Positions 1-16,752 of a DNA stretch of 64,000 nucleotides are shown piece by piece; position 1 is the first letter of the stretch; each line of letters starts with the position of its first letter. The DNA is taken from NCBI GenBank assembly GCA_041743715.1, contig JBGTMH010000080.1, positions 8,529 to 72,528 on the forward strand. Reading direction: 5' to 3'. The notes beneath the pieces were generated by a model. The model did not search any database and had not been told where the DNA came from. It saw only the letters and a program-made list of their open reading frames with translations. This stretch comes from Patescibacteria group bacterium. GTDB lineage: Bacteria > Patescibacteriota > Microgenomatia > Levybacterales > UBA12049. The position numbers were made by a program, and so were the translations under genes.

Positions 1-784
1 TCGCACTCGTATAATATCGCAATGCAAATTTCCAGAATCTCCGAGAAAAATAAAGTAATCCAAAGGCAACAATAATAATAAGTGACATGTCAAAAAATGT
101 CGCTTTCTGTAACAGTGCTTTTGTGGGGATACTCACAACCAAAGTAAATGGAAGGAGTACGTAAAAAATAAGTATCTTAAATTCATTCAGTATTTGCGGT
201 GGATAGCGTGTTAATGTATCTACTGCATAGAGTGTCTCAACTAAATTATTTAAATCCGGATGCCAGATAGTAATTGTTAAGACAATAAACCATAGCGAAT
301 ACAAAATAGTGAGACCTAAAAACCCTAAGGCTATGAATTGTAATAAAGTCAAAAATGTTAAGCCTATACCTGTTTGCTGTAACATATAAAATGTAAAAAT
401 AACAGCCGCAACAACACGTACAACCCCATAAAAACTTATATACCAAAAACTGAGAGAAAACTGACTATCAAGCGGCTTCAGAAGCAATCCGTCTAATTCT
501 CCTCTTTGGATAATTTGTGCAAACCGATCAAAATTTTTCGAAAAGTACATGCGAAATAATCCACCAATCATTATATTAAATACACCAATTAAAATAAAAA
601 GCTCTTCTCTGCTCCAGCCAAAAACTGATGAACTTTTTGAAGTCAAGGCATAAATTGTAATGATAGAAAAAGCTGCCCATAAAAGACTGGATATCAAACC
701 ATTAAGAAAATCTATACGATAAATGGTAAACCGTATATAATTTAACTTTAAAAGTGTTTTATAAATCCTTATATATCGTTTCAT
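1..784 (-). CDS. ABC-2 family transporter permease, A-type paralog (partial: last ~3 codons and stop lie before window start)
   Basis: The minus-strand frame starts with ATG at 784-782, in an ATGA overlap with the stop of the 781..1575 gene, and reads MKRYIRIYKTLLKLNYIRFTIY. At nt 2-58 the same frame reads ...LLYFSRRFWKFALRYYTSA, colinear with the C-termini of the A-type paralogs 1577..2374 and 3161..3949 (...FWKFALRYYTSASS). The frame was checked only at both ends. The ORF track misses it because the stop is outside the window; the listed 246..446 ORF is in a different frame. Confidence 0.55.
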   Translation of the reverse strand, partial: MKRYIRIYKTLLKLNYIRFTIYRIDFLNGLISSLLWAAFSIITIYALTSKSSSVFGWSREELFILIGVFNIMIGGLFRMYFSKNFDRFAQIIQRGELDGLLLKPLDSQFSLSFWYISFYGVVRVVAAVIFTFYMLQQTGIGLTFLTLLQFIALGFLGLTILYSLWFIVLTITIWHPDLNNLVETLYAVDTLTRYPPQILNEFKILIFYVLLPFTLVVSIPTKALLQKATFFDMSLIIIVAFGLLYFSRRFWKFALRYYTSA

Positions 785-1575
785 TGTCCAACTGAGGCAA
801 ATTGCCTTAACACACTTCGCCATACTATCTTGTAGACGAAAGCAAAGCCCACCAACCAAGCTATCTGAATACCAATAACCTGTAGCATCATTGGGACAGA
901 CAACTGACCTAATAATGCAACAATGGGATAGTAAATTATGTAAGCAAAAGGAAGAGCATATGCGATGCTTTCAAGAATACCAGGCAAAAGGTTAATAGGG
1001 AGAATATAACCTGCAAATATGATAATAAGAATCGTCAATAATTCATTGAGCCCCCTAATATCAGTTGTTATAAATGAGAGAATGCCGACTATCATCTTGA
1101 ACGTAAACGAAATAAAATAAGCAAGAAGAAAAATAAGACAACAAAGCCCAATTTGAAACATTGAGAGTGGGGAGAAAATGGTTACTCCAAACACCATAGA
1201 TAAACCAACGCACAGTAAAATTCCCAAAACTCCTTGAAAAAAGCGATAGGGAATTTCAAAATAAAAATTTTGCCAGTAATAAGAAAATGGCTTTAATAAC
1301 CGACCATCTATCTGTCCCAATTCTATATCATCATGTAAAATTTTAACCTCAATATGTGTCATGAGTGTTGCAGCTGTCGCTACCAGCAAAAAATAATATG
1401 CACTGACACTCGGTAATGTCCAGTGTGAAAGACTACTATGTTCTTGAAAAACGCCGCGAATAAAAGCAAGATAAATTAAGGCTTCAACTAATGCAATAAA
1501 AAGCCATACTATCGAACGGCCCCGATGAGCCAGTAAATTTTGGAAATGAAGTAAAAAAATTCTAAAATACCGCAT
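781..1575 (-). CDS. ABC-2 family transporter permease, B-type paralog
   Basis: Polytopic hydrophobic protein of ~265 aa beginning MRYFRIFLLHFQ and ending ...RQFASVGQ. The start is set at the conserved MRYFRIF Met, 1 nt after the stop of the upstream A-type gene; the track's longer ORF would overlap that gene by 60 nt. Paralogous to 2377..3159. Confidence 0.6.
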   Translation of the reverse strand: MRYFRIFLLHFQNLLAHRGRSIVWLFIALVEALIYLAFIRGVFQEHSSLSHWTLPSVSAYYFLLVATAATLMTHIEVKILHDDIELGQIDGRLLKPFSYYWQNFYFEIPYRFFQGVLGILLCVGLSMVFGVTIFSPLSMFQIGLCCLIFLLAYFISFTFKMIVGILSFITTDIRGLNELLTILIIIFAGYILPINLLPGILESIAYALPFAYIIYYPIVALLGQLSVPMMLQVIGIQIAWLVGFAFVYKIVWRSVLRQFASVGQ

Positions 1576-1576
1576 A

Positions 1577-2374
1577 TTAACTACTTGCACTCGTATAATA
1601 CCGTAATGCAAATTTCCAGAATTGACGAGAAACGACAAAGAGCATCATGGAACAAATAATTGGCCAAATAATGTCACCCAATAATATTTTTTGTAACAGA
1701 ACTTTTGCTGGAGAGATAATAACAAGTGTTAGAGGGAAAAGGGTTATGAAAAGAAAGATACTCGCCCCTTTATACATTTCTGGAGGAAATCTTGTAATAT
1801 GATTTATTTCATACAACAAATTGACAAGATTCTCCAAATTAGTAAACCATAATGTTAGTGTCATCACAAAAAACCAGAATGAATAGAGAATAATAAGTGA
1901 CAGTATAAATAGTACGATAAAACCACCAATTGTCAGAAAGCTTAGAGTGATATGCATTTGCGATAACATATATGAAACAAACAATAATCCAACTATTAAC
2001 CGTATCGCGCTACCATATCCTATAAGCAAGCATGTCATAATAAATTGAGAATCTATGGGTTTCATGAGTACTGCATCTAATTTGCCGTAGTGAATGTTTT
2101 CGGAAAATTCATTAAAATTATGAGAAAACAAAATAAAGAAAACACTAATGAAGACATTATACATACCCGCAAGAAGTAATAATTCATCTCGTGTCCAGCC
2201 GAAAACATTTGGAGCTTTTGATGTCAAGAGAAGCATGCTCGTTATAATAAAAAGACTCCAAGCGAGATTTGCTCCAAAACTACTATAAAAATTTGCTCGA
2301 TAAGCCAACATTGTTGCAAAATTAAGCTTAATCAACATGCGATAAATCTTAAAATACTTCTTAATATTTCTCAT
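1577..2374 (-). CDS. ABC-2 family transporter permease, A-type paralog
   Basis: Hydrophobic 266-aa protein ending ...WKFALRYYTSASS, paralogous to 3161..3949. The start is set at MRNIKKYFKIYRM, just after the stop of 2377..3159. Confidence 0.6.
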   Translation of the reverse strand: MRNIKKYFKIYRMLIKLNFATMLAYRANFYSSFGANLAWSLFIITSMLLLTSKAPNVFGWTRDELLLLAGMYNVFISVFFILFSHNFNEFSENIHYGKLDAVLMKPIDSQFIMTCLLIGYGSAIRLIVGLLFVSYMLSQMHITLSFLTIGGFIVLFILSLIILYSFWFFVMTLTLWFTNLENLVNLLYEINHITRFPPEMYKGASIFLFITLFPLTLVIISPAKVLLQKILLGDIIWPIICSMMLFVVSRQFWKFALRYYTSASS

Positions 2375-2376
2375 CT

Positions 2377-3159
2377 TTATTGTCCCACCGCTGAATATTT
2401 TTTTATACCTGCATTCCAAACAATTTTATAGAGGAAAAAGAGCAACCCTATCCAAAGTGCTTGCATACCCAACACATGGAGCAACTCCTCAATCTTTAAT
2501 TTACCTTCAAATGCAAGGACCGGAAAATAAAGCATATACGAAAATGGCAAGAGGTACGTTACATTCGCAAGCCAACTTGGAAATAGCGAGAGAGGCATCA
2601 GGTAACCTGCAAAAATCATTAAGAAGGCATTAATTACATCAAACAAACCTCTCGCCTCAGTCATCCAAAAAGCAAAAAGTCCAACGATCATCTTGAATAA
2701 AAATGCAATGAAAAATCCACCAACAACGACAAAAACTCCTAGCAAGAGCAGTAACGGAGATTCTGTCAGGGAAAACATATTCGGGAATAATAAAAAAAGT
2801 ATAAGAAAAAATAGAACTCCAAAAATTCCTTGAATCAATCTATTCGGAAGTGCATAAAAAAATTTCATTCCTATATAAGAAAACGGCTTAAGAAGAAACA
2901 TGGTTAATTGTCCTTCATGAATATCTTTTCTGCCAATTTCCTCTTCGATATGCGTCATAATAAAAGCTCCCAGAATAATGATCAGGAAATAGTAGGAGGT
3001 AATCTGCTGCATACTCCAGTCAGGAATTGCACTTGCACCTCGCCAAAATAAAATCATCACAAGCGGTCCGACAAAGGTAAGCAGTAGCCAAACAAGCGAC
3101 CGCCCCCGTTGTTCAAATACATCCTGAAAATGAAGGAGAAAAATTCTAAAATACCGCAT
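2377..3159 (-). CDS. ABC-2 family transporter permease, B-type paralog
   Basis: Begins MRYFRIFLLHFQDVFEQRGRS and ends ...KKYSAVGQ, with ~6 predicted TM segments. Roughly 45% identical by eye to 781..1575. Confidence 0.6.
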   Translation of the reverse strand: MRYFRIFLLHFQDVFEQRGRSLVWLLLTFVGPLVMILFWRGASAIPDWSMQQITSYYFLIIILGAFIMTHIEEEIGRKDIHEGQLTMFLLKPFSYIGMKFFYALPNRLIQGIFGVLFFLILFLLFPNMFSLTESPLLLLLGVFVVVGGFFIAFLFKMIVGLFAFWMTEARGLFDVINAFLMIFAGYLMPLSLFPSWLANVTYLLPFSYMLYFPVLAFEGKLKIEELLHVLGMQALWIGLLFFLYKIVWNAGIKKYSAVGQ

Positions 3160-3160
3160 A

Positions 3161-3949
3161 TTAACTACTTGCACTATTATAATGTTTTATACCGAAGTAG
3201 AAAAACTTGTGTGCTGCAAAGAATAACATACCTCCCACGACAAATGAGAGGATTATAAATTCCCATGACAGATTTTTCACTAAAAATTGCGCTGGGAAAG
3301 TGAACATAATTGCAAGAGGGATGATAAAAGTCAAAATAAACCGAAGAGGTTCTTTATAAAATCCGATTGGATATCGTGCTCCTTCTGTAAATATATCATA
3401 CAGTTCCCAAAATGCTTTGAGTTCTATAATCCAAAAAGCCAAAGTAACTGCAATAATCATAATACTGTAAAGCATAAGAATACTGTTCACAATGAGCAGG
3501 CCACCAATGAGCACTTGTAAAAAAGTACGCTGCACATCGGCCTGGTGTAGGTAATACCCTATAATTCCAAATGCAATAAACACATTTGGGACACTCACAA
3601 GAAGAAGCTCTTTCAGGGACACTAAAAATTGCGTCGAAACAGGTCGCAGAAGAATATAATCAAGCGTTCCTAATCGAATGTATTCCGAAATCATGTTTAA
3701 GTTTCTTGAAAATAAAGCAAACCAAATCTCGTCAATAAGCATATAGACACCGAATAATACGAACGCTTCATTTTTGTTCCATCCAACAATAGTTGTTGTC
3801 TGTTGAAAGATAACAAGAAATCCTATATATGCGACAATAACCCATACCACGTATCGTGCTACATTTGCCAGAAAATCAAAACGATATTCCATCTCATTAA
3901 TAATTGAGAATTTAACTAAGTGATAATATAACGAAAGATACCGTATCAT
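3161..3949 (-). CDS. ABC-2 family transporter permease, A-type paralog
   Basis: Hydrophobic protein ending ...KHYNSASS. The start is set at MIRYLSLYYHLVKF, which overlaps the stop of 3946..4740 by 2 nt. Confidence 0.55.
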   Translation of the reverse strand: MIRYLSLYYHLVKFSIINEMEYRFDFLANVARYVVWVIVAYIGFLVIFQQTTTIVGWNKNEAFVLFGVYMLIDEIWFALFSRNLNMISEYIRLGTLDYILLRPVSTQFLVSLKELLLVSVPNVFIAFGIIGYYLHQADVQRTFLQVLIGGLLIVNSILMLYSIMIIAVTLAFWIIELKAFWELYDIFTEGARYPIGFYKEPLRFILTFIIPLAIMFTFPAQFLVKNLSWEFIILSFVVGGMLFFAAHKFFYFGIKHYNSASS

Positions 3950-4740
3950 TGCCCGAACCCTCCATAACGCCGCAAGCCTTTTTTCCACAATAATATATGC
4001 AGTCCATATAATATGCCAACCCAAAAACACTGCACGCCAATTCCGAACCATAAGTCAGTCCCTGTAACATGACCAAGAATAACATTAACCGGAAAACCTA
4101 AGAAATAATAGTAGGGTAAAAAGGTAAAAAAAGCTTCGGGAATCACCTTGGTTGCGTACTGTATTGGAAATAATCTTCCTGAAAAAAGAAGTGAAAGTCC
4201 CTCATTATAATCCCGCAGAGCGTTCACACTATTCGTCCAAAAACCTGCAAGTCCGATCACTTGAGAGATAAAAAATTTTATCATCCCGGCCAAAAAAACC
4301 GATACGAACGCAACCGGAATCGTCTGCCATACTGGTATCGTTAAATATGACTGGTAGATAAAATACAGTGGGATCAATGCAACGAGAGAAAACAATATTT
4401 TCCAAACTTTTTCACTGACATTGTTGGCCGCCATATACCTGATATATTCATACGGTTTGAGCAAAAACATAAGAAGCTCTCCCGTCCTGATACGATCTGC
4501 CAAAATACGACCATGCCAAGAACTAACCAACACATTAACAATAATTTGCACATAATAATACTGCACCAGATAGGAGGTATCCAGCGCTTCCCCACCTTTT
4601 GCTTCTGCAACAGTAACCCATACGTTCAGAAGCACCCAAGGAAGTACAATTGCATTCATGGTGAAGATAAAAACATCTCCACGATACTCACCGAATTTTT
4701 GGAATTCCATAAGCAGAAGCATTTTAAATTTGTTAAACAT
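3946..4740 (-). CDS. ABC-2 family transporter permease, B-type paralog (most divergent copy)
   Basis: Hydrophobic protein ending ...RRYGGFGQ. The start is chosen at the ATG at 4740 (MFNKFKMLLLMEFQKF, analogous to MRYFRIFLLHFQ in the paralogs), 16 nt downstream of the ATPase stop. The track ORF start at 4851 would overlap the ATPase by 95 nt. Confidence 0.5.
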   Translation of the reverse strand: MFNKFKMLLLMEFQKFGEYRGDVFIFTMNAIVLPWVLLNVWVTVAEAKGGEALDTSYLVQYYYVQIIVNVLVSSWHGRILADRIRTGELLMFLLKPYEYIRYMAANNVSEKVWKILFSLVALIPLYFIYQSYLTIPVWQTIPVAFVSVFLAGMIKFFISQVIGLAGFWTNSVNALRDYNEGLSLLFSGRLFPIQYATKVIPEAFFTFLPYYYFLGFPVNVILGHVTGTDLWFGIGVQCFWVGILYGLHILLWKKGLRRYGGFGQ

Positions 4741-4756
4741 ACGTATTGAGGCAACG

Positions 4757-5743
4757 TTAGACACGAGACGCTTTATTTGAGAAGACGTCGCGGATGATTT
4801 CTTCAATATTTGCTTCTTCGATATTAAGATCTTCCACGGGAAATGACTCAAGTAATTTGGCTGCTACATGATTAGACTTCTCCCGGGGCATAGAAATGAC
4901 TGCTCGTCTGTCTTCAAATTCGACGACTTTGCCGAGCTTTTCTAACTTTTCTTTGGCAACTGGTTTTTCAAAAATTACAGTAATTGACTTGTGTTTGGCA
5001 TATTTTTTGACAATATTCGAAAGACTCCCATCATAAAGCAACTTGCCATGATCAATAATGATGACGCGCTCACACAGCTGTTCGACGTCCTTCATATAAT
5101 GACTTGTCAGGATGATCGTCGCCTTGTAACGCTGATTATATGCTTTGATAAAGTCACGAAGCTTTTGCTGCATGACAACATCAAGACCGATGGTCGGCTC
5201 ATCGAGAAAAAGGAGTTTTGGGGTATGAATCAATGCCGCGATTAATTCACATTTCATCCGTTGACCCAAAGATAACTTGCGAACTTGCACCTGCAGTATA
5301 TCTTTAACATCCAATAATTCTGAAAGCTCGTCCACTGTTTTTTTATATCGTGCCCCTGGTATTTCATAAATTTCCTTATTGAGCAGAAATGAATCAATAG
5401 CAGGGAGATCCCACCACAGCTGGTTTTTTTGTCCCATAACGAGAGAAATTTGCTTGAGATATGGATGTTTCCTTTCAAAAGGTGTATAACCAAGCACATC
5501 GACCTTGCCGCTTGTCGGATACAAGAGTCCTGTCAGACATTTGAGGGTTGTTGTTTTCCCAGCCCCGTTAGGACCGATAAAACCTATGAGCTCCCCCTCC
5601 TCAATTTCAAATGAAATATCATCTACTGCCTTGGCATCATAATATTTTCTATTAAATAATGACTTAAGAGATCCTGTAAATCCGGCCTCTTTTTGATGAA
5701 CTTGATAGTATTTGGTGAGGTGCGATACGGAAATGACTGACAT
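4757..5743 (-). CDS. ABC transporter ATP-binding protein (first gene of the permease operon)
   Basis: Walker A GPNGAGKTT, ABC signature LSLGQRMK, Walker B LLFLDEPT and the H-loop TSHYM are present. It is 328 aa with a C-terminal extension typical of ABC-2 exporter ATPases. Confidence 0.9.
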   Translation of the reverse strand: MSVISVSHLTKYYQVHQKEAGFTGSLKSLFNRKYYDAKAVDDISFEIEEGELIGFIGPNGAGKTTTLKCLTGLLYPTSGKVDVLGYTPFERKHPYLKQISLVMGQKNQLWWDLPAIDSFLLNKEIYEIPGARYKKTVDELSELLDVKDILQVQVRKLSLGQRMKCELIAALIHTPKLLFLDEPTIGLDVVMQQKLRDFIKAYNQRYKATIILTSHYMKDVEQLCERVIIIDHGKLLYDGSLSNIVKKYAKHKSITVIFEKPVAKEKLEKLGKVVEFEDRRAVISMPREKSNHVAAKLLESFPVEDLNIEEANIEEIIRDVFSNKASRV

Positions 5744-5833
5744 AAGTAAAAAGTCAAAAGACGTTAATCAAATTATAGCAAAACGAAGCCCCTCATGGTT
5801 GAGAAACTTCTTTGTCAGCGAGATACAAAACTC

Positions 5834-6106
5834 TTACCGTACTGCTTTCTTAAGTGTTTTACCCGCTGTAAAACCAGGAGCTTTTCGTGCGGAAAGCGTA
5901 ATGGCTGCACCTGTCTTGGGATTGCGTCCTGTACGCTGCTGTCTACTTCTGACGCTAAAGGTACCAAATCCAGTCAATACGACTTTTTCTCCGCGTTTGA
6001 GAGAATCACGAATGGTATTAAGCGAAGTTTGGACAGCATCACGGGCTGCTTTATTTGTAAGATTGGCCTTTTTGGCAACAACTTCAATGAGATCTTTTTT
6101 AGTCAA
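5834..6106 (-). CDS. hup: HU family DNA-binding protein
   Basis: 90 aa reading MTKKDLIEVVAKKANLTNKAARDAVQ...GFGTFSVRSRQQRTGRNPKTGAAITL, which matches the HU/IHF beta-arm consensus. Confidence 0.9.
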   Translation of the reverse strand: MTKKDLIEVVAKKANLTNKAARDAVQTSLNTIRDSLKRGEKVVLTGFGTFSVRSRQQRTGRNPKTGAAITLSARKAPGFTAGKTLKKAVR

Positions 6107-6335
6107 AGAAACTCACCCCCTCCCGTATAAATTCCAAGAGACAAAATCATGCGATTAGATTAACAATACAAGGAAAATGATGAGTTGTCAAGTATTTTAT
6201 GGTTCTGAAAAAATTGCTGTGGCAGGTACTGATTATCTACGGAAGAAGCCGCCAAAAATTTGAGATAAAAGTTGGTTTATATGATGGACCCAATAAACTA
6301 GACACTATCCGTAGACTAAGTTAGTATAGTTTGAT

Positions 6336-6551
6336 ATGGTTCAAAACATAAGGAGAATACACTCACCGGCATTTAAAGCAAAGGTAGCATTGGAAGCAAT
6401 CAAGGAGCAAAAGACAATAGCTAAGTTGGCAAGTCTGTATAGTGTTCATCCAACACAGATAACAAAATGGAAGAAGAAAGCACTTGAGATATTGTCACAG
6501 GGATTTTCAGAGGAAAAGCTTAGTCTAAATTTTGCCGATTTATTGTCTTGA
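6336..6551 (+). mobile_element. IS3-family-type transposase OrfA (HTH_Tnp_1) N-terminal fragment; IS remnant
   Basis: 71 aa reading ...HSPAFKAKVALEAIKEQKTIAKLASLYSVHPTQITKWKKKALEILSQGF, the typical N-terminus of IS3-type OrfA. It stops after ~70 aa with no leucine-zipper or OrfB continuation in any frame downstream. Confidence 0.5.
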
Positions 6552-6723
6552 CAATGGGGTCCACCTTAGAAACTCCTTTTTGTAAAAAGTCTAAGGGAAG
6601 AAGCCGCGTACTTAATTAGTTGTTTTCTGTCCATTGAATTTTTTTTATATTATAAAATTTTATTGTACTGTCAATCTATCAATAGCATGCGTAAGGACAA
6701 TACTGAATCGTTACGTTAATGAC

Positions 6724-9700
6724 TTATGGAGTTATTGTCCACGTTCCAAATGATTTGAAGGCACTACATGCTGCTCCACCCTGTACATCAGCTGACTTTT
6801 TCGGACCTGTCCCAACTGTCGTCCCGAGGAGAAAATTGTTTCTGAGATAATACATTTTTGCGTCTGTTCCGATAGTTGCACCAAATTGACTATTTGCCTG
6901 ACTGTCATTGTACCAAAGCCTCGCTGTCCCAAGTGGACTCAGAGAGCCAGTACAGGTGGTTCGTGCATATACTTTGATACTCAATTTTGATCCTTGTGGA
7001 AAATCAACTGGGGTGAATGTATTAAAAGGAATTGTCTGTAACTTTGCACTTGAAAATCCACCAAAGCCTACTAATCCTAGATTAACACTATTAATCTGTC
7101 CTGAACTGACTAACGTTGTATCTTTATACGCCTCAGCCTTCAGATCAAACTTTGCTCCTGCTCCGAAAATACCACCGAGTCCTACCCATACTTTTGTAGG
7201 ATTCAAAGACGTAAGTTTGTTTGGTTGATTCTCCTCAACGATAGCAAAGGGTGAAAGAGAGGAGGAAATGCCGACTATTTCATACGTAAATGTACCAGCG
7301 TCAATAAGCGTACTTGTTTGGGTTATATCTTCCCACCCAGAACCGTCATTGTGGAGAAGTCTCGGATCCTGGATTGCATCTTCACCTATATAATGCACGG
7401 TGACAGTGACCGGCCCCGTATATGTTGCTGTTGTTGTTATGTTATAAAACGTATTGAGTGTGCTATATCGTGGCGGTATGGGGCCGTCAGGATTGGAGTC
7501 TAACTCTTCGATCAGGACATAGCCAGGTGAAGTTACCTCACTGAATGAAACGGTGGTATTGCCGATCGTAACTGTCTCTTGCCCGGGTGAAACCTGTGCG
7601 GCATGCACGGTACTGCTGATAGTAAATGTTTGGGTCTTATGCGGTGTTTCTTCAAGTCCGGTATTGTCAACGGACCAGTAGATGATCGTATGTTCTCCTG
7701 CATCGGAGACGGTAAACGGCCCGGTATATGGTTGCTGAGCATTGCTGTCGATTTGATAGTAGGTGTCCTCAACACTAAAGCCTGATGCTGCTGATGCGGA
7801 AAGCGTTACCTGTACTGGATCAGGGTACTCGCCATTCTCAAGAGCGCTTGGGGCTATGTTTGCTGTGGTCGTTGGCTCGTCGTGTGGCGCGGGTGTCGGA
7901 GTTATAGTTGGAGTAGGCGTATTCGTAGGTGGAAATTTAGAATAAAGTTCTGCTGATGCAAGATTGGTACCATTGCTATTTCCTCCTACTGCTAATACTT
8001 GATCATCCGATAATAGTACAGTACTATGATAAACTCGTGCAACATTCATTGGTGTGGTTAGTGACCAAACACCACCGACAGGATCATATAGCTCCGAAGA
8101 AGCAAGTTGTGTCTGTGATATATCTGCAGTAGATCCTCCCGCAACAAGAACACGACCATCTGAAAGCAAGGTAGAGGTCGTATAACGTCGACCAGTATTT
8201 AAGTTTCCAGATGCTGTCCATATTCCAGTAGCTGGGTCATAGAGTTCTGTTAGTGAGGAGGGTGACATTGTTGAACCAACAACAAGCACTTTACCATTGT
8301 TAAGACGAGTCAATGTATGTTCTACTCGTCCTCTTTGCGTAGAACCGGTTTGTGTCCAAGTTCCTGTATTTGGATCATATAATTCTGCGGATAATGCTGT
8401 TGCGGAGGTAGGTCCTCCATTACCTCCGGAAACAAGCACTTTTCCATCTGCAAGGAGAACAGCCCGATGAAAGTAACGAGGTGAACTCATCGAGCCTGTT
8501 AGTGTCCAGGTTTCAGTAGTTGGATCATATATCTCAGATGAAGCGTGCTCAACGCTGATGTTATTAACAATATCATATCCTCCTGCTGCTAATACCCTTC
8601 CATCAGAAAGCAATGTTATTGTAGGTTGCGTACGAGGAACATTCATAGATCCCGTGTACGTCCATGCTCCAGTAGTAGGATTATATAACTCAGCAGCGGC
8701 AAGAACACCTCCATTATCATAACCATAACCTCCTGCAAGGAGCACTTTCCCATTAGCGAGAGTGACTGCTGTGGGAAAATCATTGCGTGCTATATTTACT
8801 GAACCCGTCGCATTCCATACACCAGTTGTTGAATCATAGAGGTCTGTAGTCGTAGTCGCCAGGACATTGCTACTTCCTGTAACAAGTACTTTGTCATTTT
8901 GTAATAAGGCTATTGCAAAACCAGCACGCGATTCATTCATAGAGCCTGTGTACGTCCAGGTTGGATTTGGCGTAAGTGCAGTATAAAGTTCTGCTGTTGC
9001 TAAATGGCGGCCAGAAGTATTTCCTCCGACTGCCAACACTCTATCGTTTGATAATAATATCGCTTCATGGTAAAATCGTGCATCACTAAGGGATGCCGTA
9101 TTTGTCCACGTATCGCTTACAGGATCATACAGCTCAGCAGAAGTGAGATAAAAAGGAGTACCACTATTGCCTGATCCTCCAGTAGCAAGAACACTACCGT
9201 CAGAAAGCAAGGTTGCAGTATGCAAACGTCGCTTATTATTTAAGTCTCCCGCGGCTGTCCATGTACCTGTCACGGGATCATACAATTCTGTTGATGCAAA
9301 GTCGTCACCACCTATATAGCCGCCAACAAGAAGTACTTTCCCATTTGCAAGCAGCGTCGATGTATGTTCGAAACGAGGTGATGTGATAGATCCGGTTGGT
9401 GACCAAGTGCCTGTCGCGGGATCATAAATCTCGGCTGAAGTACGATAGACAAAGGAAGAGCTAGGATTGTCTCTATACGCTCCTCCAACCACTAACACCT
9501 TCCCATCAGAAAGTACTGTCGCTGTGTGTCTGGAGCGTGATGCATTCATGGATCCAGTTGGTGACCATGTATCTGTACTCGGATCATATATCTCTGCTGT
9601 GGAATAGGATAGTTGGTTTGATCTCTCGCCTCCTGTTACTAATATCTTTCCACCAGCAAGGACTGTGGCAGTAGCATATATGCGAGGTTCTGGCATAGAT

Positions 9701-10185
9701 GCAGCGCTCGTCCATGTACCATTACTCGGATCATATAATTCTGACGAAGAAACATGTTCTCCTGAAGAAACCCCTCCGGTTATTAGCACCTTTCCATTAG
9801 GAAGTGTTACAGTTAGGAAGCTTTGGCGGGGAGCATTCATTGCCCCTGTGGTATTCCATGTGCCATTTGTTGGATCATATATTTCTGCTGAAGAAAGTAG
9901 AATTATATCGCCTTCCTCCGTGTGGCTTTGACCTCCAAATACAATTACTTTACCATTTTGTAATAGAGTCGACCCAAAGTTACTACGTCCTTCATTCATA
10001 GAACCCGTATTTGTCCAGTCAGAAGCAGTCTGTGCATATCCGCGGGAATTTATTATCGGTAAAACGAAAAGCATGACTACCAAACTTACCACGACACTGA
10101 GACCAAGGAAATAGGGGGATAACTTATTCTTTGCTATAAACTTAAAAGGAGAAACAGCGTGATTTACTAGTTGTTTTAACTGCAT
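6724..10185 (-). CDS. Giant secreted Kelch-repeat protein P1, with chitobiase-like domain and conserved C-terminal domain
   Basis: N-terminal signal anchor (LSVVVSLVVMLFVLPI). At least 14 Kelch-type blades with the recurring motif SAE(I/L)YDP(x)TGTW(x)xTGSMxxxRxxH(T/E)AxLLxxGKVLVxGG. A PT linker PTNTPTPTITPTPAP is followed by a chitobiase/beta-hexosaminidase-C-like domain (TYYQIDSNAQQPYTGPFTV...IIYWSVDNTG) and then the ~165-aa conserved CTD ending GGAACSAFKSFGTWTITP. Confidence 0.85.
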   Translation of the reverse strand: MQLKQLVNHAVSPFKFIAKNKLSPYFLGLSVVVSLVVMLFVLPIINSRGYAQTASDWTNTGSMNEGRSNFGSTLLQNGKVIVFGGQSHTEEGDIILLSSAEIYDPTNGTWNTTGAMNAPRQSFLTVTLPNGKVLITGGVSSGEHVSSSELYDPSNGTWTSAASMPEPRIYATATVLAGGKILVTGGERSNQLSYSTAEIYDPSTDTWSPTGSMNASRSRHTATVLSDGKVLVVGGAYRDNPSSSFVYRTSAEIYDPATGTWSPTGSITSPRFEHTSTLLANGKVLLVGGYIGGDDFASTELYDPVTGTWTAAGDLNNKRRLHTATLLSDGSVLATGGSGNSGTPFYLTSAELYDPVSDTWTNTASLSDARFYHEAILLSNDRVLAVGGNTSGRHLATAELYTALTPNPTWTYTGSMNESRAGFAIALLQNDKVLVTGSSNVLATTTTDLYDSTTGVWNATGSVNIARNDFPTAVTLANGKVLLAGGYGYDNGGVLAAAELYNPTTGAWTYTGSMNVPRTQPTITLLSDGRVLAAGGYDIVNNISVEHASSEIYDPTTETWTLTGSMSSPRYFHRAVLLADGKVLVSGGNGGPTSATALSAELYDPNTGTWTQTGSTQRGRVEHTLTRLNNGKVLVVGSTMSPSSLTELYDPATGIWTASGNLNTGRRYTTSTLLSDGRVLVAGGSTADISQTQLASSELYDPVGGVWSLTTPMNVARVYHSTVLLSDDQVLAVGGNSNGTNLASAELYSKFPPTNTPTPTITPTPAPHDEPTTTANIAPSALENGEYPDPVQVTLSASAASGFSVEDTYYQIDSNAQQPYTGPFTVSDAGEHTIIYWSVDNTGLEETPHKTQTFTISSTVHAAQVSPGQETVTIGNTTVSFSEVTSPGYVLIEELDSNPDGPIPPRYSTLNTFYNITTTATYTGPVTVTVHYIGEDAIQDPRLLHNDGSGWEDITQTSTLIDAGTFTYEIVGISSSLSPFAIVEENQPNKLTSLNPTKVWVGLGGIFGAGAKFDLKAEAYKDTTLVSSGQINSVNLGLVGFGGFSSAKLQTIPFNTFTPVDFPQGSKLSIKVYARTTCTGSLSPLGTARLWYNDSQANSQFGATIGTDAKMYYLRNNFLLGTTVGTGPKKSADVQGGAACSAFKSFGTWTITP

Positions 10186-10374: not shown

Positions 10375-11649
10375 CTATACAACTGTCGTCTCAGGATAGA
10401 CGGCGCGGAATTCGCGGATGGCGGTTACTTTTACTTCTCCAGGAACTGCGAGGGATCTACTGACTTCTTCTTGAATCTTGCGTGAGAGTAAAACAGTCTG
10501 GGCATCATCTAATTTACCGGGATTAATAATAACCCTGAGTTCTCGTCCAGCTTCGAATGCATATGCATCGACTACTCCTTCGTAATTTTTGGCGATTTGT
10601 TCCATTTCGGTCAAGCGCTGGCCGTATTTTTCCAGATCTTCATACCGAGCTCCAGGACGCGCAGCAGAGATAGCGTCAGCGATATGGACAATAACCGATT
10701 CGACCGAAGAGAATGGCTTGTCTTCGTGATGTTCTGCAACCGCATTCACAATCGGCTCAGGAATATTGTAACGTTTGAGTAGTTCAACTCCCAACTTTAC
10801 ATGACTCCCGTCCCCCTCAAGCACTTTTCCGATATCATGGAACAGACATCCGAGTCTGACGATATCGACATTGGCACCGATTTCATGTGCGATATGGACG
10901 CCGATTTTTGTTTCTTCAAGCGTGTGAACGAGCAAATTTTGTCCATATGACGTTCTAAATTTCATCCGACCCAACAATGGGTATAAATCAGTAGGCAGAC
11001 TATAGATGTTCACTTCATTGGCAAGATTTTCACCCTCTTGAAACATAATTTTCTCAAGCTCCTCCTTGGTTTGCTTGACTATTTCTTCAATTCTGAAAGG
11101 CTGGACCCGGGTGTCTTTTAATAATTTCTCAAGGGACCGGCGGGCAACTTCCCTACGGATTTGATCAAACGATGACAAACGGATGATTCCTTCTTCATCC
11201 AAATCGACATCAACGCCTGTTGACTGCTCAAACGCACGGATATTGCGTCCTTCTTTGCCTATTATCCGCCCTTTCATTTCTTCATCGGCAACTCTCACAA
11301 CAGAAACTGTATATTCAGGAACAAATTTTAACGCCCCATGCTTCAAGCTATCAAGAATTATTTCCTGCGCTTTATTATCGGCTGTAGCGCGGGCTTCTTC
11401 TTCTTTGTCTTTGATAATCTTCGCCATCATGGCTGCTGAATCATTTTCAGTTTCTGCCAAAAGCTGTTTTCTTGCTTCATCGACGCTAAAATCTGAAACT
11501 TTTTCGAGTTTTTTGACGTACTCTTGCCGTTTCTTTTCAAACTCTACTTTATCCTGCTCGAGATCGTCGCGTTTTACTTCCAGTTTTTCTTGAAGCTCTA
11601 GTAATTTTTTCTCAAGTTGAATGAGATCTTGTTGTGATGCTGTTGACAT
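10375..11649 (-). CDS. rny: Ribonuclease Y (KH + HD domains); no N-terminal TM helix evident
   Basis: KH region (GKEGRNIRAFEQSTGVDVDLD) and HD motif (LGCLFHDIGKV) are present, together with the conserved stretch FRTSYGQNLLVHTLEETKIGVHIA. The start is set at the ATG giving MSTASQQD; the track start at 11682 uses a TTG codon. Confidence 0.85.
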   Translation of the reverse strand: MSTASQQDLIQLEKKLLELQEKLEVKRDDLEQDKVEFEKKRQEYVKKLEKVSDFSVDEARKQLLAETENDSAAMMAKIIKDKEEEARATADNKAQEIILDSLKHGALKFVPEYTVSVVRVADEEMKGRIIGKEGRNIRAFEQSTGVDVDLDEEGIIRLSSFDQIRREVARRSLEKLLKDTRVQPFRIEEIVKQTKEELEKIMFQEGENLANEVNIYSLPTDLYPLLGRMKFRTSYGQNLLVHTLEETKIGVHIAHEIGANVDIVRLGCLFHDIGKVLEGDGSHVKLGVELLKRYNIPEPIVNAVAEHHEDKPFSSVESVIVHIADAISAARPGARYEDLEKYGQRLTEMEQIAKNYEGVVDAYAFEAGRELRVIINPGKLDDAQTVLLSRKIQEEVSRSLAVPGEVKVTAIREFRAVYPETTVV

Positions 11650-11786
11650 AGTATTTATACGTGGCAAAAGAAGAATACCCAAAGGGCATTTATGCTTGAA
11701 CTATGAAGGTGAGTTCTGTTCGCTTCATAAAAATTATCAATCCCGATAGAATCGAGACCACCCAACTTCTCTTGCTATAAGGTGTA

Positions 11787-12260
11787 TTATACTCTATTTT
11801 CTAAATAATCGTCAATTGCCTTTTTTATTATGTCCCATCCGAAGCCGCGTCGAGCTAAAAAAGCCCCGACTTTATTATATATCTCTTGCCTGGGATAGCC
11901 CTGCATTTTTTCCATGCGTTTGACAATAATTGATTTTGCCTGAGTTAATTCATCAGTAAGCTCTTCATTCTCTTCACCCAAAATCTCCTCAATCAACTCT
12001 TTTGCAATGCCTTTTTGTTGGAGTTCGATTTGCAAAAGTCGTTTGCCTATGGGACGTAGTCTTCCACGGTACTGAACCCATGAACGGGCAAAAGCTTCAT
12101 CATTAAGAAATTTTTGCTCAGTCAGCCGCGAAATAACCTGCTCAATCAATTCTGGCGTAGCATTTTTTTTGGTGAGGTAATCCCGAATTTCTTTTTTCGA
12201 CCGGTTACGGATTGCAAGATAGCGATAGACAAGATCCAAATATTTTCTTAATTGCTCCAT
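11787..12260 (-). CDS. recX: RecX family recombination regulator
   Basis: Three-helical-repeat RecX pattern (YRYLAIRNRSKKEIRDYLTKK...FLNDEAFARSWV...AFLARRGFGWDII). Start set at the ATG giving MEQLRKY; the track start is TTG. Confidence 0.8.
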   Translation of the reverse strand: MEQLRKYLDLVYRYLAIRNRSKKEIRDYLTKKNATPELIEQVISRLTEQKFLNDEAFARSWVQYRGRLRPIGKRLLQIELQQKGIAKELIEEILGEENEELTDELTQAKSIIVKRMEKMQGYPRQEIYNKVGAFLARRGFGWDIIKKAIDDYLENRV

Positions 12261-12314
12261 TTTAGAGAATCGCAATTTTCCTATGTGACAAAGCTGTGAA
12301 GAAATGAGTCTGCA

Positions 12315-15300
12315 TTATGGAGTAATCATCCATGTTCCAAAAGACTTGAAAGCACTACAAGCAGCTCCACCTTGGACATCAACTGTCTGTTTGGGACCAC
12401 TTCCTACTGTTGGTGAGAGGACAAAGTTATTAAGCAGATAGTAATTGCTTGTATTCGTTCCAATCGTTGCTCCAAACTGACTATTGACTTGATTATCATT
12501 GTACCAAAGCCTTGCAGTTCCAAGTGGATTTTGGGAACCTGTACAGGCTGTCCGTGCAGATACTTTGATACTGAGCTTTGATCCTTGAGGGAAATCAACA
12601 GGTGTAAAGGCACTAAAAGGAATTGTCTGTAGTTTTGCTCCACTAAATCCGCCAAACCCAAATCCTGGGTCTGCGCTGTTGAGTTGTCCCGTACTGACAA
12701 GCGTTGTGTCTTTATAAGCCTCAGCTTTCACGTCAAATTTTGCACCAAAACCAAAGAAGTTAGGTAATCCAATCCATACTTTTGCAGGACTCAGTACAGT
12801 GAGTTTATCTGGAGTTGGAGTAGGTGTCGGGGTATTTGTGGGGGTAGGAGCTGCGGTTGGAGTGGGTGTATTCGTTGGTGTAGGCGTTGGAGTACTGGTT
12901 GGTACAGGTGCAATACCAAAATTAACAGTGGTATCAGCAGTTAATGGTACTGAAACCGGATTTGTGGTCGTTGCTGTATATCCTGTTGGAACATTGAGAT
13001 CAACGGTATACGAACCAGTGGTGAGGGATGAGAACGCATAGTTACCTGTACTATTTGTAGTATCAGTGTTACTTACGTCTCCTGAGAGCGTTATTGTCGC
13101 TCCTTGATAGTCTGTTTCTCCTGAGTCTTTGACTCCATTTTGATTGGTGTCTGTATAGACGTTACCGTCAATGGTATATGTTGGTACCGGAGTTGGGGTT
13201 GGGGTATTGGTAGGTGTTGGTGTTTCTGTTGGTGACGGTGTCGCGGTAGGCGTAGGTGTCTCAGTTGGGGTCGGGGTTGGAGTACTTGTTGGCACAGGAG
13301 CGATACCGAAGTTTTGTGTTGTATCAGCACTGACAAAAACTATCGCAGGATTTGTCGTTGTTGCCATATACCCGGCAGGAATCGTTAATGTTTCGGTATA
13401 TGTTCCACTTTGCAAATTCGGGAACGCATAGTTGCCTTCTTGATCTGCTGTTGTTGTCTCTCCAGTATCAAGTGTTAGTGTGGCGTCATTGACGCCTGTT
13501 TCTGAGGAATCTTGCACACCATTTTGGTTGGCATCAATATACACGGTTCCTGAAAGAGTATGTGTTGGAATTGGCGTAGGTGTTGGGGTATCGGTTGGAG
13601 TTGGTGTCGGTGTCTCCGTGGGAGTTGGAGTATTTGTGGGAGTAGGTGTACTGGTTGGGGTAGGTGTAGGCATCTCGGTTGGTGTCGGGGTATTCGTAGG
13701 AACAGGAGCAATACCAAAATTTTGCGTGGTATCCTCAGTGAGTGGCACTGTTACTGGATTGGTGGTAGTTGCTATATACCCAGCTGGAACGGAAAGCGTT
13801 TCTGTGTACGAATCTGTTTGCAGATTTGGAAACGTGTAAATGCCATTTGCATCGGTTTCTGTTGACTGTCCTGAATCAAGTGTCAGTGTTGCTCCACTGT
13901 AGCCTGTCTCTCCTGCATCCTGTACACCGTTCTCGTTAGCATCGATATAGACTGTTCCTGTCAGGCTATAAGAAGCTATGGTAAATGGTTTGCTATTTTG
14001 TGATTCTGTTACGCCTGAGTTGTCAACCGACCAATAGACAATGGTATGATTACCATTTCCTGATACGGTAAATGGAGCAGTATATGTTTGCTGTGCTCCC
14101 CCATCTACTTTGTAATAGGTATTAGCAACTGTATATCCAGATGCTGCAGTTGCAGAAAGCGTGACGGTTACAGGATTGGAGTAAGCCCCATCAGAAAAGG
14201 GAGTTGGTGCGAGAGTCGCAGTAGTGACTGGTGGATTATGTGAGTATTGCAATGAAATCACTTCACTCTGATCTGAAGTTACAGTAATATTATTGAGAGT
14301 AAAGGTAGAATAAATGCTCCCACCTGGTGGGGTAGCTGTAAAACTATATGTACTATTTGCATTTGTCGGCAAAAGCCATAAAGTAGTATCGCCGTTTGAA
14401 TCAGTTGCTGGACCAGAAGCATTTGCGCCATAGGATGACCCACCAGATACGTTGGTTATTCCTCCCCCAATTGACAGTCCACCATTATTGATTATCCCAC
14501 TTGGCGGTGAGGTACTGATCACTACGTTGTCTATTGGGTTTCCTTGCATATCTTGTATATGAACACTGACCTTTTTCGCTGGAATTGTAATATCTAAATT
14601 GGTATTTTGAGTTAGAGAATATGGCGTAGCAATGACATTATATGTTTGTGGAGCATTAAGGGATAAATTATTTGCATTAGCGTTAATAGTCAAAGCATAG
14701 GTTCCAGTTGATGCTTGTAAGGAGTAATTGCCTAAAGAATCTGTATTTGTGGTTGCTTGGATTTGTCCTGAAGACTGTAAAGAAACTGTCTGGTTTGATA
14801 GTGGGTTACCAAGCGGATCAAATACATGACCGCTCAATGTAACTGGCTGATTCATAGTTACTGTCTTTTGAGTATTACCAGTAATTGAAATATTAGAAAG
14901 CGTAGTTGTAGTGAAAGTGCTTCCAGCAGGTGTTTTAGCAATTATGTTGTATTTACTTGTAGTATCCGTCGGCAATAACCATAATGTGACATTTCCATTT
15001 ATGTCTGTCTTGGGGCCAGGAGCATTATTGCCATAGATTGATCCACCTGATGCATTCGTTATTCCTTCACCAATAACGAGTGTTCCGTTATTAATGGTTC
15101 CATTTGGACTTGTATTAATTTCTGAATTACTAATGGGACTTCCTGCTGCGTCTTGTACATGAACGTCTACTTTAACAGCAGGAACCGTGAGATTTAAAGT
15201 TGTGTTTTGTGTAAACTCAGTAGCAGAAGAAAAATTAGTAATTTTGTATTCCTGGGGAGCATTCAATGAGAAACTATTATTATTTGCATTTATAATAAGG

Positions 15301-16409
15301 GTATACTTTCCAGATGAAACTTGCATTGAATAATTCCCTGAGTTGTCTGTTGTTGAAGTTGCTACTATCTGTGCAGAGGTTGCTTGTAAAGACACTGTTT
15401 GATTTGGAAGTGGATTACCCAAAGAATCATTTAAATGTCCATTTACAGTTACTGGCTGTGTTAAAGTAATCGTTTTCTGGGTATCAGTTGTAATAGCTAC
15501 ATTATTAAGAGTCGTTGTTGAATAAACACTCCCAAATGGAGGAACAGCAGTAAAGGTATACGTGCTATTTGCATTTGTCGGCAAAAGCCATAATGTTACA
15601 TTTCCTGCAGCATCTGTTTTTGGTCCTGGAGCATTACTTCCATATGAAGATCCTCCTGACCCAGTAGTGATACCACTTCCAAGTGAAAGTCCACCATTAT
15701 TGATAATACTTCCACCTGGTGGCGAAGTATTAAGTTCTACATTACTAATGGGATTTCCTGCAGCATCTTGAACATGTGTAGTAACTTTCTTCACTGGAAT
15801 CGTAATATCTAAAATGGCACTTTGACTAAACGATGTAAAAGGTGTTCTTATCCTGTATGTTTGAGGAGCGTTGAGAGATAAGCTATTATTATCAGCAGAG
15901 AAAAAAAGAGTATATGATGCAGCTGAGACTTGAAAAGAGTAACTCCCATTAGCATCTGTTGTAACATTTGTTTGTGTGGCATCCGAAGCTTGTAATGTCA
16001 CGGTCTGATTCTGGAGAGGATTACCCAATGGGTCAAATAGGTGTCCACTTATAATTATTGATCCTGCAGGGGCGAAAACAAAATTTATAACGGTGTTGGA
16101 GGAAATAGTCCTACTTGGAATATGAATTGGTGCAAAATTGCTTCCGGCAGGCGGAGTCACTTTTATAGAATAAGTTCCTCCTGGAACAATTAAACTATAA
16201 CTACCATCACTATCACTTGTGGTACTATCTACAAGTACATTTGAATTAGCATCATTTACATTTATTGTTGCACCGCTAACCGTACTTCCTGATGAATTTT
16301 TTACCGATCCTGATATAGTAACCGTGTCCGCATGAACACTATCAGCCAAAGATAATCCGAAAAAGCTTAGGATTAAAGTCAAAAATATGACGTTGATAAT
16401 TTTTATCAT
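12315..16409 (-). CDS. Giant secreted multi-module surface protein P2 (1364 aa)
   Basis: Signal peptide MIKIINVIFLTLILSFFGLSLADSVHA. Carboxypeptidase-regulatory-like/Cna-B-like modules, then three ~195-aa internal repeats (VTVNGHLNDSLGNPLPNQTVSLQ...HVQDAAGSPISNSEINTSP...WLLPTDTTSKY). A chitobiase-like domain follows, then three SdrD-B-like modules (GTVYIDANENGVQDAGETGY...) separated by PT-rich linkers, then the conserved ~165-aa CTD. Confidence 0.85.
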   Translation of the reverse strand: MIKIINVIFLTLILSFFGLSLADSVHADTVTISGSVKNSSGSTVSGATINVNDANSNVLVDSTTSDSDGSYSLIVPGGTYSIKVTPPAGSNFAPIHIPSRTISSNTVINFVFAPAGSIIISGHLFDPLGNPLQNQTVTLQASDATQTNVTTDANGSYSFQVSAASYTLFFSADNNSLSLNAPQTYRIRTPFTSFSQSAILDITIPVKKVTTHVQDAAGNPISNVELNTSPPGGSIINNGGLSLGSGITTGSGGSSYGSNAPGPKTDAAGNVTLWLLPTNANSTYTFTAVPPFGSVYSTTTLNNVAITTDTQKTITLTQPVTVNGHLNDSLGNPLPNQTVSLQATSAQIVATSTTDNSGNYSMQVSSGKYTLIINANNNSFSLNAPQEYKITNFSSATEFTQNTTLNLTVPAVKVDVHVQDAAGSPISNSEINTSPNGTINNGTLVIGEGITNASGGSIYGNNAPGPKTDINGNVTLWLLPTDTTSKYNIIAKTPAGSTFTTTTLSNISITGNTQKTVTMNQPVTLSGHVFDPLGNPLSNQTVSLQSSGQIQATTNTDSLGNYSLQASTGTYALTINANANNLSLNAPQTYNVIATPYSLTQNTNLDITIPAKKVSVHIQDMQGNPIDNVVISTSPPSGIINNGGLSIGGGITNVSGGSSYGANASGPATDSNGDTTLWLLPTNANSTYSFTATPPGGSIYSTFTLNNITVTSDQSEVISLQYSHNPPVTTATLAPTPFSDGAYSNPVTVTLSATAASGYTVANTYYKVDGGAQQTYTAPFTVSGNGNHTIVYWSVDNSGVTESQNSKPFTIASYSLTGTVYIDANENGVQDAGETGYSGATLTLDSGQSTETDANGIYTFPNLQTDSYTETLSVPAGYIATTTNPVTVPLTEDTTQNFGIAPVPTNTPTPTEMPTPTPTSTPTPTNTPTPTETPTPTPTDTPTPTPIPTHTLSGTVYIDANQNGVQDSSETGVNDATLTLDTGETTTADQEGNYAFPNLQSGTYTETLTIPAGYMATTTNPAIVFVSADTTQNFGIAPVPTSTPTPTPTETPTPTATPSPTETPTPTNTPTPTPVPTYTIDGNVYTDTNQNGVKDSGETDYQGATITLSGDVSNTDTTNSTGNYAFSSLTTGSYTVDLNVPTGYTATTTNPVSVPLTADTTVNFGIAPVPTSTPTPTPTNTPTPTAAPTPTNTPTPTPTPDKLTVLSPAKVWIGLPNFFGFGAKFDVKAEAYKDTTLVSTGQLNSADPGFGFGGFSGAKLQTIPFSAFTPVDFPQGSKLSIKVSARTACTGSQNPLGTARLWYNDNQVNSQFGATIGTNTSNYYLLNNFVLSPTVGSGPKQTVDVQGGAACSAFKSFGTWMITP

Positions 16410-16484: not shown

Positions 16485-16752
16485 GATTCTTATAAACTTT
16501 CTATAAAAAGCAGGGATACCATATTCTCTATATTTTACTGCTTAAAAGATACTATTTCAGTCTGTATTTTCAATTTTCTATTAATGGAAGGTAAAAGTTT
16601 TGTCTTTTATCTTAACATCGAAAGGTTCTTTTTTTTGAATATGTATGTAGACATAGGAATATAATTCGTTAGGGTTTATCTTATATGCTTTCTCCAGCAC
16701 AACTAAAGCTCCTTGTTTATCATGCTGATTGTATTTCGCAATAGCTAAGCAG
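16485..16752. repeat. 268-bp direct repeat, copy 1 (3' end of GT gene 16581..18353 plus downstream sequence); copy 2 at 20505..20773
   Basis: About 93% nucleotide identity with 20505..20773, e.g. gattcttataaactttctat(a/g)aaaagcagggataccatattctctata...catgctgattgtatttcgcaat. Confidence 0.85.

Follow-up and report, generated by a model that had tools for sequence, protein, structure and literature searches.

A 64-kb stretch of DNA from a Patescibacteria group bacterium of the Levybacterales (contig JBGTMH010000080.1, positions 8,529 to 72,528), here called the window, carries near one end a single gene for an ATP-binding cassette (ABC) ATPase followed by six tightly packed permease genes. An initial annotation of this DNA had described the permease genes as two types in the order B-A-B-A-B-A, and that order stands, read on the minus strand. 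The genes of the array, and the features just upstream of it, are these:

5834-6106, minus strand: gene for an HU-type DNA-binding protein (PF00216, E 2e-31), the conserved upstream neighbour
5785-5810, minus strand: terminator-like hairpin after the HU gene, just before TGCTATAAT
5772-5780, minus strand: extended -10 promoter-like motif TGCTATAAT, a consensus match about 28 nt upstream of the ATPase start codon
4757-5743, minus strand: ATPase (nucleotide-binding subunit), 328 residues, sole ATPase gene of the operon (PF00005, E 2.5e-27)
3946-4740, minus strand: B1, B-type permease of lineage t1, 264 residues (PF06182, E 2e-13)
3161-3949, minus strand: A1, A-type permease of lineage t1, 262 residues (PF06182, E 1e-49)
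2377-3159, minus strand: B2, B-type permease of lineage t2, 260 residues (PF06182, E 8e-21)
1577-2374, minus strand: A2, A-type permease of lineage t2, 265 residues (PF06182, E 9e-39)
781-1575, minus strand: B3, B-type permease of lineage t3, 264 residues (PF06182, E 1.5e-14)
<1-784, minus strand: A3, A-type permease of lineage t3, 3' end beyond the window edge (PF06182, E 5e-37)

All six permease open reading frames (ORFs) are intact, A3 being broken off by the window edge after ...RYYTSA, short by about two codons and the stop. A 16-nt gap separates the ATPase gene from B1. At the B1/A1 and B3/A3 junctions the start of A lies over the stop of B in an ATGA overlap, B2 and A2 are 2 nt apart, and the A1/B2 and A2/B3 junctions are gaps of 1 nt. 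A hairpin scan of the array found no convincing terminator-like site between its genes. The motif TGCTATAAT at 5772-5780 is a candidate promoter of the ATPase-permease operon, and the HU gene is probably a separate transcription unit. No riboswitch or other RNA leader was recognized in positions 1-7000 of the window (no Rfam match at E<=1), and neither a further PF06182 gene nor a similar ATPase gene occurs elsewhere in the 64 kb.

Are the six proteins transporter permeases at all, of the ABC-2 type and in two alternating paralogous types, as the initial annotation had it? In the Pfam profile search that it proposed, all six match PF06182 (ABC2_membrane_6) above the gathering score, with 51-170 bits against a cutoff of 22 and E-values from 1e-13 to 1e-49; the NCBIfam collection holds no model that matches them. 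We take PF06182 to be the former DUF990 and to correspond to COG3694/COG4587. Sequence searches for solved structures gave no PDB match for A1 and, for B2, a single non-significant match to an irrelevant BAHD acyltransferase (E 1.9). AlphaFold2 models were obtained for one protein of each type, B3 with a pLDDT (predicted local distance difference test) of 88 and a pTM (predicted template modelling) score of 0.86, and A1 with a pLDDT of 89.9 and a pTM of 0.87. The top PDB fold matches of both models are the membrane domains of Wzm, KpsM, TarG, PmtD and ABCG2/ABCG25; the probability is about 1.0 and the template modelling score 0.54-0.65, yet the Foldseek E-values are only about 1e-2 and the sequence identity is only 10-18%. 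In the models, both types have an N-terminal interface helix, six transmembrane (TM) helices and re-entrant helices between TM5 and TM6, and both are predicted to have the type V ABC exporter fold. The Pfam match and the predicted fold together identify the six proteins as transporter permeases of the ABC-2 type, against the possibility, also raised in the initial annotation, that they are something else.

The six copies are less alike than that annotation supposed. The A and B types share only about 20-27% identity with each other. Within a type, the figure of roughly 45% given earlier describes pairs 2 and 3 (A2/A3 45%, B2/B3 41%) and fails for pair 1, which is only 21-29% identical to the other two. 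Pair 1 also departs from the termini that had been assigned to the two types: B2 and B3 do begin MRYFRIFLLHFQ, but B1 begins MFNKFKMLLLMEFQKF, and A1 ends in HYNSASS instead of YYTSASS. Conservation is unevenly spread along the B proteins. The cytoplasmic "coupling" segment between TM2 and TM3 is the best conserved region among B1, B2 and B3 (34-59% identity), compared with 11-31% for TM2, TM3 and the external loops; its motif reads HIExxIxxDIxxGxLxxxLLKPxxY in B and IxxGxLDxxLxKPxxxQF in A. B2 and B3 have 86% identity in the N-terminal interface helix, and each of B1, B2 and B3 retains 13 of 13 family-invariant B residues.

The ATPase is a standard ABC nucleotide-binding domain (NBD) of the DrrA/ABC-2 type, and its translation shows the Walker A, signature and Walker B motifs (GPNGAGKT, LSLGQRM and LLFLDEPT). 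The best NCBIfam match is to the DrrA subfamily model TIGR01188, at 217 bits, short of the 312 bits that the subfamily requires. At E<=1e-100 the ATPase has more than 6000 matches among database proteins, and it is 73-86% identical to the best 120 of these, which come from many Microgenomates lineages; its identity to the ATPases of related loci is 74-86%. The permeases adjoining those ATPases are only 40-60% identical to the ones in the window (48-60% for orthologous permeases). Judged by these comparisons, the ATPase appears unusually slow-evolving for a transporter with no assigned cargo, and its conservation hints, faintly, at a hub constrained by several partners.

The number of pairs per ATPase in related genomes, another check that had been proposed, was addressed by fetching 172 loci and typing their PF06182 and ATPase ORFs with profiles built from the window copies; identities and types are given below for loci labelled L001-L171. 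Architectures were counted in the 92 Patescibacteria loci with a complete downstream end. One pair behind the ATPase (ATPase-B-A) was found in 44 of the 92, two pairs in 47 (five of them with a split ORF) and three pairs in a single locus, L168. Four permease genes behind one ATPase are the norm in about half of this clade, and six are rare but recurrent, so that the earlier remark on ordinary systems, with their one or two permease genes, does not describe these relatives. The order ATPase-B-A is universal in at least 92 related loci, and the outgroup loci from Deinococcales and Chloroflexota have a single pair. The nearest loci lie on contigs of metagenome-assembled genomes (MAGs) labelled Candidatus Levyibacteriota, Levybacteria, other Microgenomates or Patescibacteria. 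The gene order of the window, RecA ... RecX - RNase Y - HU - ATPase, is common to relatives, and HU followed by the ATPase is present in L001, L003, L165, L168, L169 and L171. Judged by these neighbours, the DNA most likely comes from a CPR bacterium of the Levyibacteria type. At this RecX-RNase Y-HU-ATPase locus, every architecture has one ATPase.

An assembly artefact was considered for the six-gene array and rejected, given that the copies are at most 45% identical and that L168 is an independent three-pair locus.

A few loci depart from the common pattern. Two MAGs of Moraniibacteriota / Parcubacteria (L074, 1775-6088, and L080, 8265-13085) have four PF06182 genes in the order B-A-B-B upstream of the ATPase; the typing used window-derived profiles, and the fourth gene may be misassigned. 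In a contig labelled uncultured Gammaproteobacteria (L039, CAZLAJ010000067.1, 1671-5564), two tandem clade-I-type pairs are followed by the contig end. These pairs are about 34% identical to each other, neither is t2 or t3, and the locus looks like an independent duplication of the first pair. Many MAG contigs labelled Gammaproteobacteria bear Patescibacteria-type loci, and these labels look unreliable.

The relationships among the pairs were analyzed with separate neighbour-joining trees for A and B and with a concatenated B+A tree of 112 pairs (520 columns, 100 bootstraps). The A and B trees are congruent. This phylogeny of the six copies, which had also been proposed at the outset, puts the three window pairs into three lineages, and a fourth lineage occurs in relatives:

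t1 (bootstrap 100): window pair 1, the second pair of L165, and L164
t2 (bootstrap 98): window pair 2 and the first pair of L035, L052, L094, L165, L168 and L171
t3 (bootstrap 100): window pair 3, the first pair of L001, L003, L005, L007, L062 and L169, and the second pair of L094 and L168
t4 (bootstrap 100): the divergent last pair of most two-pair relatives and the third pair of L168

The order of these lineages behind the ATPase varies from locus to locus:

Window: t1-t2-t3-(edge)
L168: t2-t3-t4
L165: t2-t1
L094: t2-t3, where the array stops
L035 and L171: t2-t4
L001, L005, L007, L062 and L169: t3-t4
L003: t3

Only the window and L168 belong to the three-pair class, and t1 holds the first position only in the window. 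A t4 pair follows t3 in 6 of 8 related loci; none was seen within the window. The idea that B1/A1 is a displaced t4 pair was rejected, since B1 and A1 score lowest with the t4 profiles (109 and 121 bits, where the other profiles give 174-202 and 147-152) and the concatenated tree places pair 1 in its own clade with the second pair of L165 and with L164.

Each window pair is closer to pairs in other genomes than to its own neighbours: identity is 50-61% to orthologues elsewhere and 21-45% within the window. The A2 protein has 50-56% identity with the A of the first pair in L035, L052, L094, L165 and L168, and A3 is 53-61% identical to the t3 A-type proteins of L003, L001, L005, L094 and L168. 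The orthologue-like matches of A1 are at 48-54%; B1 shares 52% identity with the B of the second pair of L165 and 35% with the B of L164. Because of these relationships, and because the clades have bootstraps of 98-100, the three pairs are not the product of local triplication, as the initial annotation had proposed. The array is best seen, from its trees and identities, as a set of old modules of three ancient lineages, independently gained, lost and reordered.

The t1 clade is sister to the single pairs of Deinococcales/Roseiflexaceae (bootstrap 78). In L164 (a Logan contig from SRR22387922, 8236-10789), a t1-type B-A pair stands with its own ATPase, which is 65% identical to that of the window, in a different neighbourhood that includes a giant GT2 glycosyltransferase, a sortase and an Exo_endo_phos gene. 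Such an arrangement suggests that t1 was at some time an operon in its own right, or can still be one. Because the L164 pair has its own ATPase at another locus, it also suggests that t1 joined the main locus, where it now relies on the resident ATPase.

The genes present, their family and predicted fold, the phylogeny of the pairs and their modular distribution are established; how might six permeases work with one ATPase? The account that we consider probable, and hold with moderate confidence, is that the array is a conserved PF06182 ("EvrABC-like", TCDB 3.A.1.141) ABC-2 exporter locus in which three heterodimeric pairs share the single ATPase. We infer that each B would join the adjacent, translationally coupled A to form a pseudo-symmetric heterodimeric type V transmembrane unit, and that the three heterodimers would dock by turns on a homodimer of the ATPase. 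The outcome would be three distinct exporters that differ in substrate or product specificity and share one motor; among relatives, the pairs would be modules that can be inserted, dropped or rearranged while the ATPase stays the same. The two types always come as neighbouring genes, B first and then A, joined in the window by an ATGA overlap or a 1-2-nt gap. The conserved coupling region, together with the variable TM2, TM3 and loops, is consistent with a common docking surface and a diverged substrate path. Transport is taken to run outward solely because of the fold class.

Several points weigh against this account of shared docking. The docking of the pairs on this particular ATPase is read from sequence and gene arrangement. 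The search for other ATPase genes spans 64 kb, and an ATPase elsewhere in the genome could serve at least one of the pairs. Different substrate specificities are deduced purely from divergence, and the sole characterized family member, EvrABC, is known just for the export of synthetic viologens and so offers no natural cargo to transfer to this locus. The trees are neighbour-joining trees on about 520 columns, and their deep nodes are without resolution. Finally, NBDs generally outlast transmembrane domains (TMDs) in conservation in any ABC system, so the contrast between ATPase and permeases is weak evidence.

A broader proposal, which we offer tentatively, is that the PF06182 locus of Microgenomates is a modular cassette system. 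At least four ancient pair lineages (t1-t4) would be mixed, rearranged and exchanged behind a slow-evolving ATPase hub, at least one of them perhaps captured from an operon with its own ATPase. The hub would serve as many as three alternative exporters; a t4 pair just past the window edge would raise the number to four.

Perhaps only one of the pairs, such as t3, which is the only or the first pair in the closest relatives, uses the operon ATPase, the others being redundant, in the course of being lost, or energized elsewhere. Relatives do well with one pair (the 44 loci counted above), pair content is fluid among them, and t1 has its own ATPase in L164. It is difficult, however, to reconcile redundancy with six intact ORFs that keep the family-invariant residues, or with lineages that are each conserved over many genomes at 48-60% identity, which indicates purifying selection. 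Reduced genomes usually purge dead genes, and no second ATPase lies within the 64 kb to energize the remaining pairs. Of the alternatives this one survives best, and we consider it unlikely.

Next in standing, and also improbable, is combinatorial assembly, in which the three B and three A proteins mix freely or homodimerize on the ATPase dimer to give nine or more transporter species. The six genes are predicted to be co-transcribed, and their products share coupling-region motifs and conserved termini, so that the sequences are compatible with cross-pairing. Nonetheless, B and A of the same lineage are without exception co-inherited, side by side and with congruent phylogenies, and a B or A that lacks its lineage partner occurs at no locus, frameshifted or contig-end cases aside. 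The ATGA overlaps within pairs likewise suggest coupled synthesis of cognate partners.

The initial annotation had left two interpretations side by side, namely alternative translocators on one ATPase and an unusually large hetero-oligomeric channel. The former is the best reading of the locus; the latter, with six permeases arranged around the ATPase, finds no support and is highly improbable. Its only point is the presence of six permease genes, predicted to be co-transcribed, with one ATPase gene. Pair number (1-3) and pair identity vary between close relatives with 80-86% identical ATPases, which is incompatible with an obligate six-subunit complex. The channel is disfavoured because pairs are gained and lost as independent units and because both the rule for the ABC family and every structural match (Wzm2Wzt2, TarG2H2, KpsM2T2) point to a machine with two TMDs and two NBDs.

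The junctions between pairs contain repeated DNA. An exact 37-nt direct repeat (3139-3175 and 1555-1591) occupies the A1|B2 and A2|B3 junctions and lies inside a 113-nt repeat at 78% identity (1487-1599 / 3071-3183). A2 and A3 have a 46-nt stretch in common at their 3' ends (89% identity; 3-48 / 1587-1632), and all remaining exact matches between paralogous pairs are at most 14 nt long. The conserved junction sequences reported in the initial annotation are real, then, but they are coding sequence, the 3' ends of A genes and the 5' ends of B genes, and they encode A C-termini and B N-termini. The A C-terminus ALRxYTSAS[SG]* occurs in about 20 other genomes with varied codons, and the B N-terminus MRYxRIFLLHFQ is conserved throughout the family. 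Background codon identity at conserved residues is about 0.43, and the junction has about 10 consecutive identical degenerate codons, more than expected. The repeat is mainly explained by protein-level constraint plus the codon bias of the genome, and homologous exchange between permease modules may also act on it or have left it as a footprint. A role as a recombination or switching element was considered and not upheld, as the repeat encodes family-wide termini and neither inverted repeats nor recombinase genes were found flanking the array. The tandem layout and these nucleotide repeats might seem to point to one ancestral B-A pair that was triplicated in tandem recently, within this lineage, and whose copies then diverged. 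That reading is almost certainly wrong in view of the orthologues and bootstraps given above and of the family-wide conservation of the protein termini that the repeats encode.

How does this locus compare with systems already described? The closest is EvrABC, the viologen exporter of Synechocystis sp. PCC 6803, a likeness that rests on membership in the same PF06182 permease family. EvrABC has one ATPase and two different permease subunits per transporter, which the alternation of A and B in the window fits; it has a single permease pair, in contrast to the three pairs of different lineages behind one ATPase seen here. The viologens that EvrABC is known to export are synthetic compounds, and the viologen phenotype is not transferable to the window locus. 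The name in KEGG is "viologen exporter family transport system", and the TCDB family name for EvrABC-type exporters (3.A.1.141, EVE family) is quoted in PMC5417439. In a study of wastewater MAGs, evrABC homologues among Patescibacteria were found only in Microgenomatia (PMC10469934).

The predicted type V fold is shared with Wzm-Wzt (O-antigen), KpsMT (capsule), TarGH (wall teichoic acid), PmtCD and ABCG2. Unlike the several heterodimer-type pairs of the window, the TMDs of those transporters form a homodimer from one gene. Substrate-specific accessory domains or genes, such as a carbohydrate-binding domain on the ATPase or KpsE, were not seen at the window locus.

Another comparison concerns the sharing of an ATPase. 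In group II energy-coupling factor (ECF) transporters, one EcfAA'T module serves several S components, and MsiK and MsmK are multitask importer ATPases. By analogy, the arrangement proposed here would also have one energizing module serve several membrane modules. Those systems import their substrates and belong to other fold classes, the genes for their membrane modules usually lie dispersed over the genome, and sharing has been demonstrated by experiment; in the window the modules are arrayed in one operon and sharing is proposed from that arrangement.

Operons that combine COG3694/COG4587 with a natA-like gene, of unassigned function, are found under ppGpp (guanosine tetraphosphate) riboswitches in Firmicutes (PMC6003355). 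They resemble the present locus in joining these permease COGs to an ABC-2 ATPase. They differ in having a single pair, and the Rfam search described above gave no match to the ykkC subtype 2a riboswitch here. The searchable literature yielded no account of arrays with several pairs or of the way in which lineages are combined in them as modules. In its architecture the locus is a variant of a known, essentially uncharacterized transporter family; it does not represent a new category of system.

Patescibacteria, with their tiny genomes, are thought to rely on host cells. That the locus nevertheless stays at a fixed position beside RNase Y and HU, with an ATPase 74-86% identical across many Microgenomates, and that lineages maintain two or three pairs, suggests that export through it is important and is diversifying. 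Should one NBD dimer indeed serve several heterodimeric type V pairs, the array would offer a clear example from nature of ABC exporters that share a module, and a tractable system for studying how TMD-NBD interfaces stay compatible while substrate paths diverge. If the cassette proposal is right, the locus would be an exporter counterpart of ECF-type module sharing in minimal genomes, and it might serve the export of different envelope or host-interaction molecules. For annotation, "evrABC" matches in these genomes are multi-pair arrays of distinct lineages instead of plain duplicates, and a viologen function for them finds no support.

Other features lie upstream of the array. At 6336-6551 (plus strand), between HU and a Kelch-repeat gene, a 71-residue ORF matches only the N-terminal helix-turn-helix of IS3-type transposases (PF01527, E 8e-6) and is apparently a transposase remnant; in relatives, RNase Y lies directly beside HU at this place. 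The Kelch-repeat gene (6724-10185, minus strand) encodes a secreted-looking protein of 1153 residues with many Kelch/galactose-oxidase-type beta-propeller repeats and a C-terminal region without a Pfam match. Relative to the synteny of L001, L003, L165, L169 and L171, it is inserted between RNase Y (10375-11682) and HU. Next to RecX (11787-12275) lies a gene (12315-16409, minus strand) for a 1364-residue protein of repeated CarboxypepD_reg, SdrD_B, Big_1 and SpaA-like Ig-fold domains, of the adhesin or surface-fibre type. Farther on are two paralogous TPR + PMT_2-like proteins of about 590 residues, encoded at 16581-18353 and 20835-22616.

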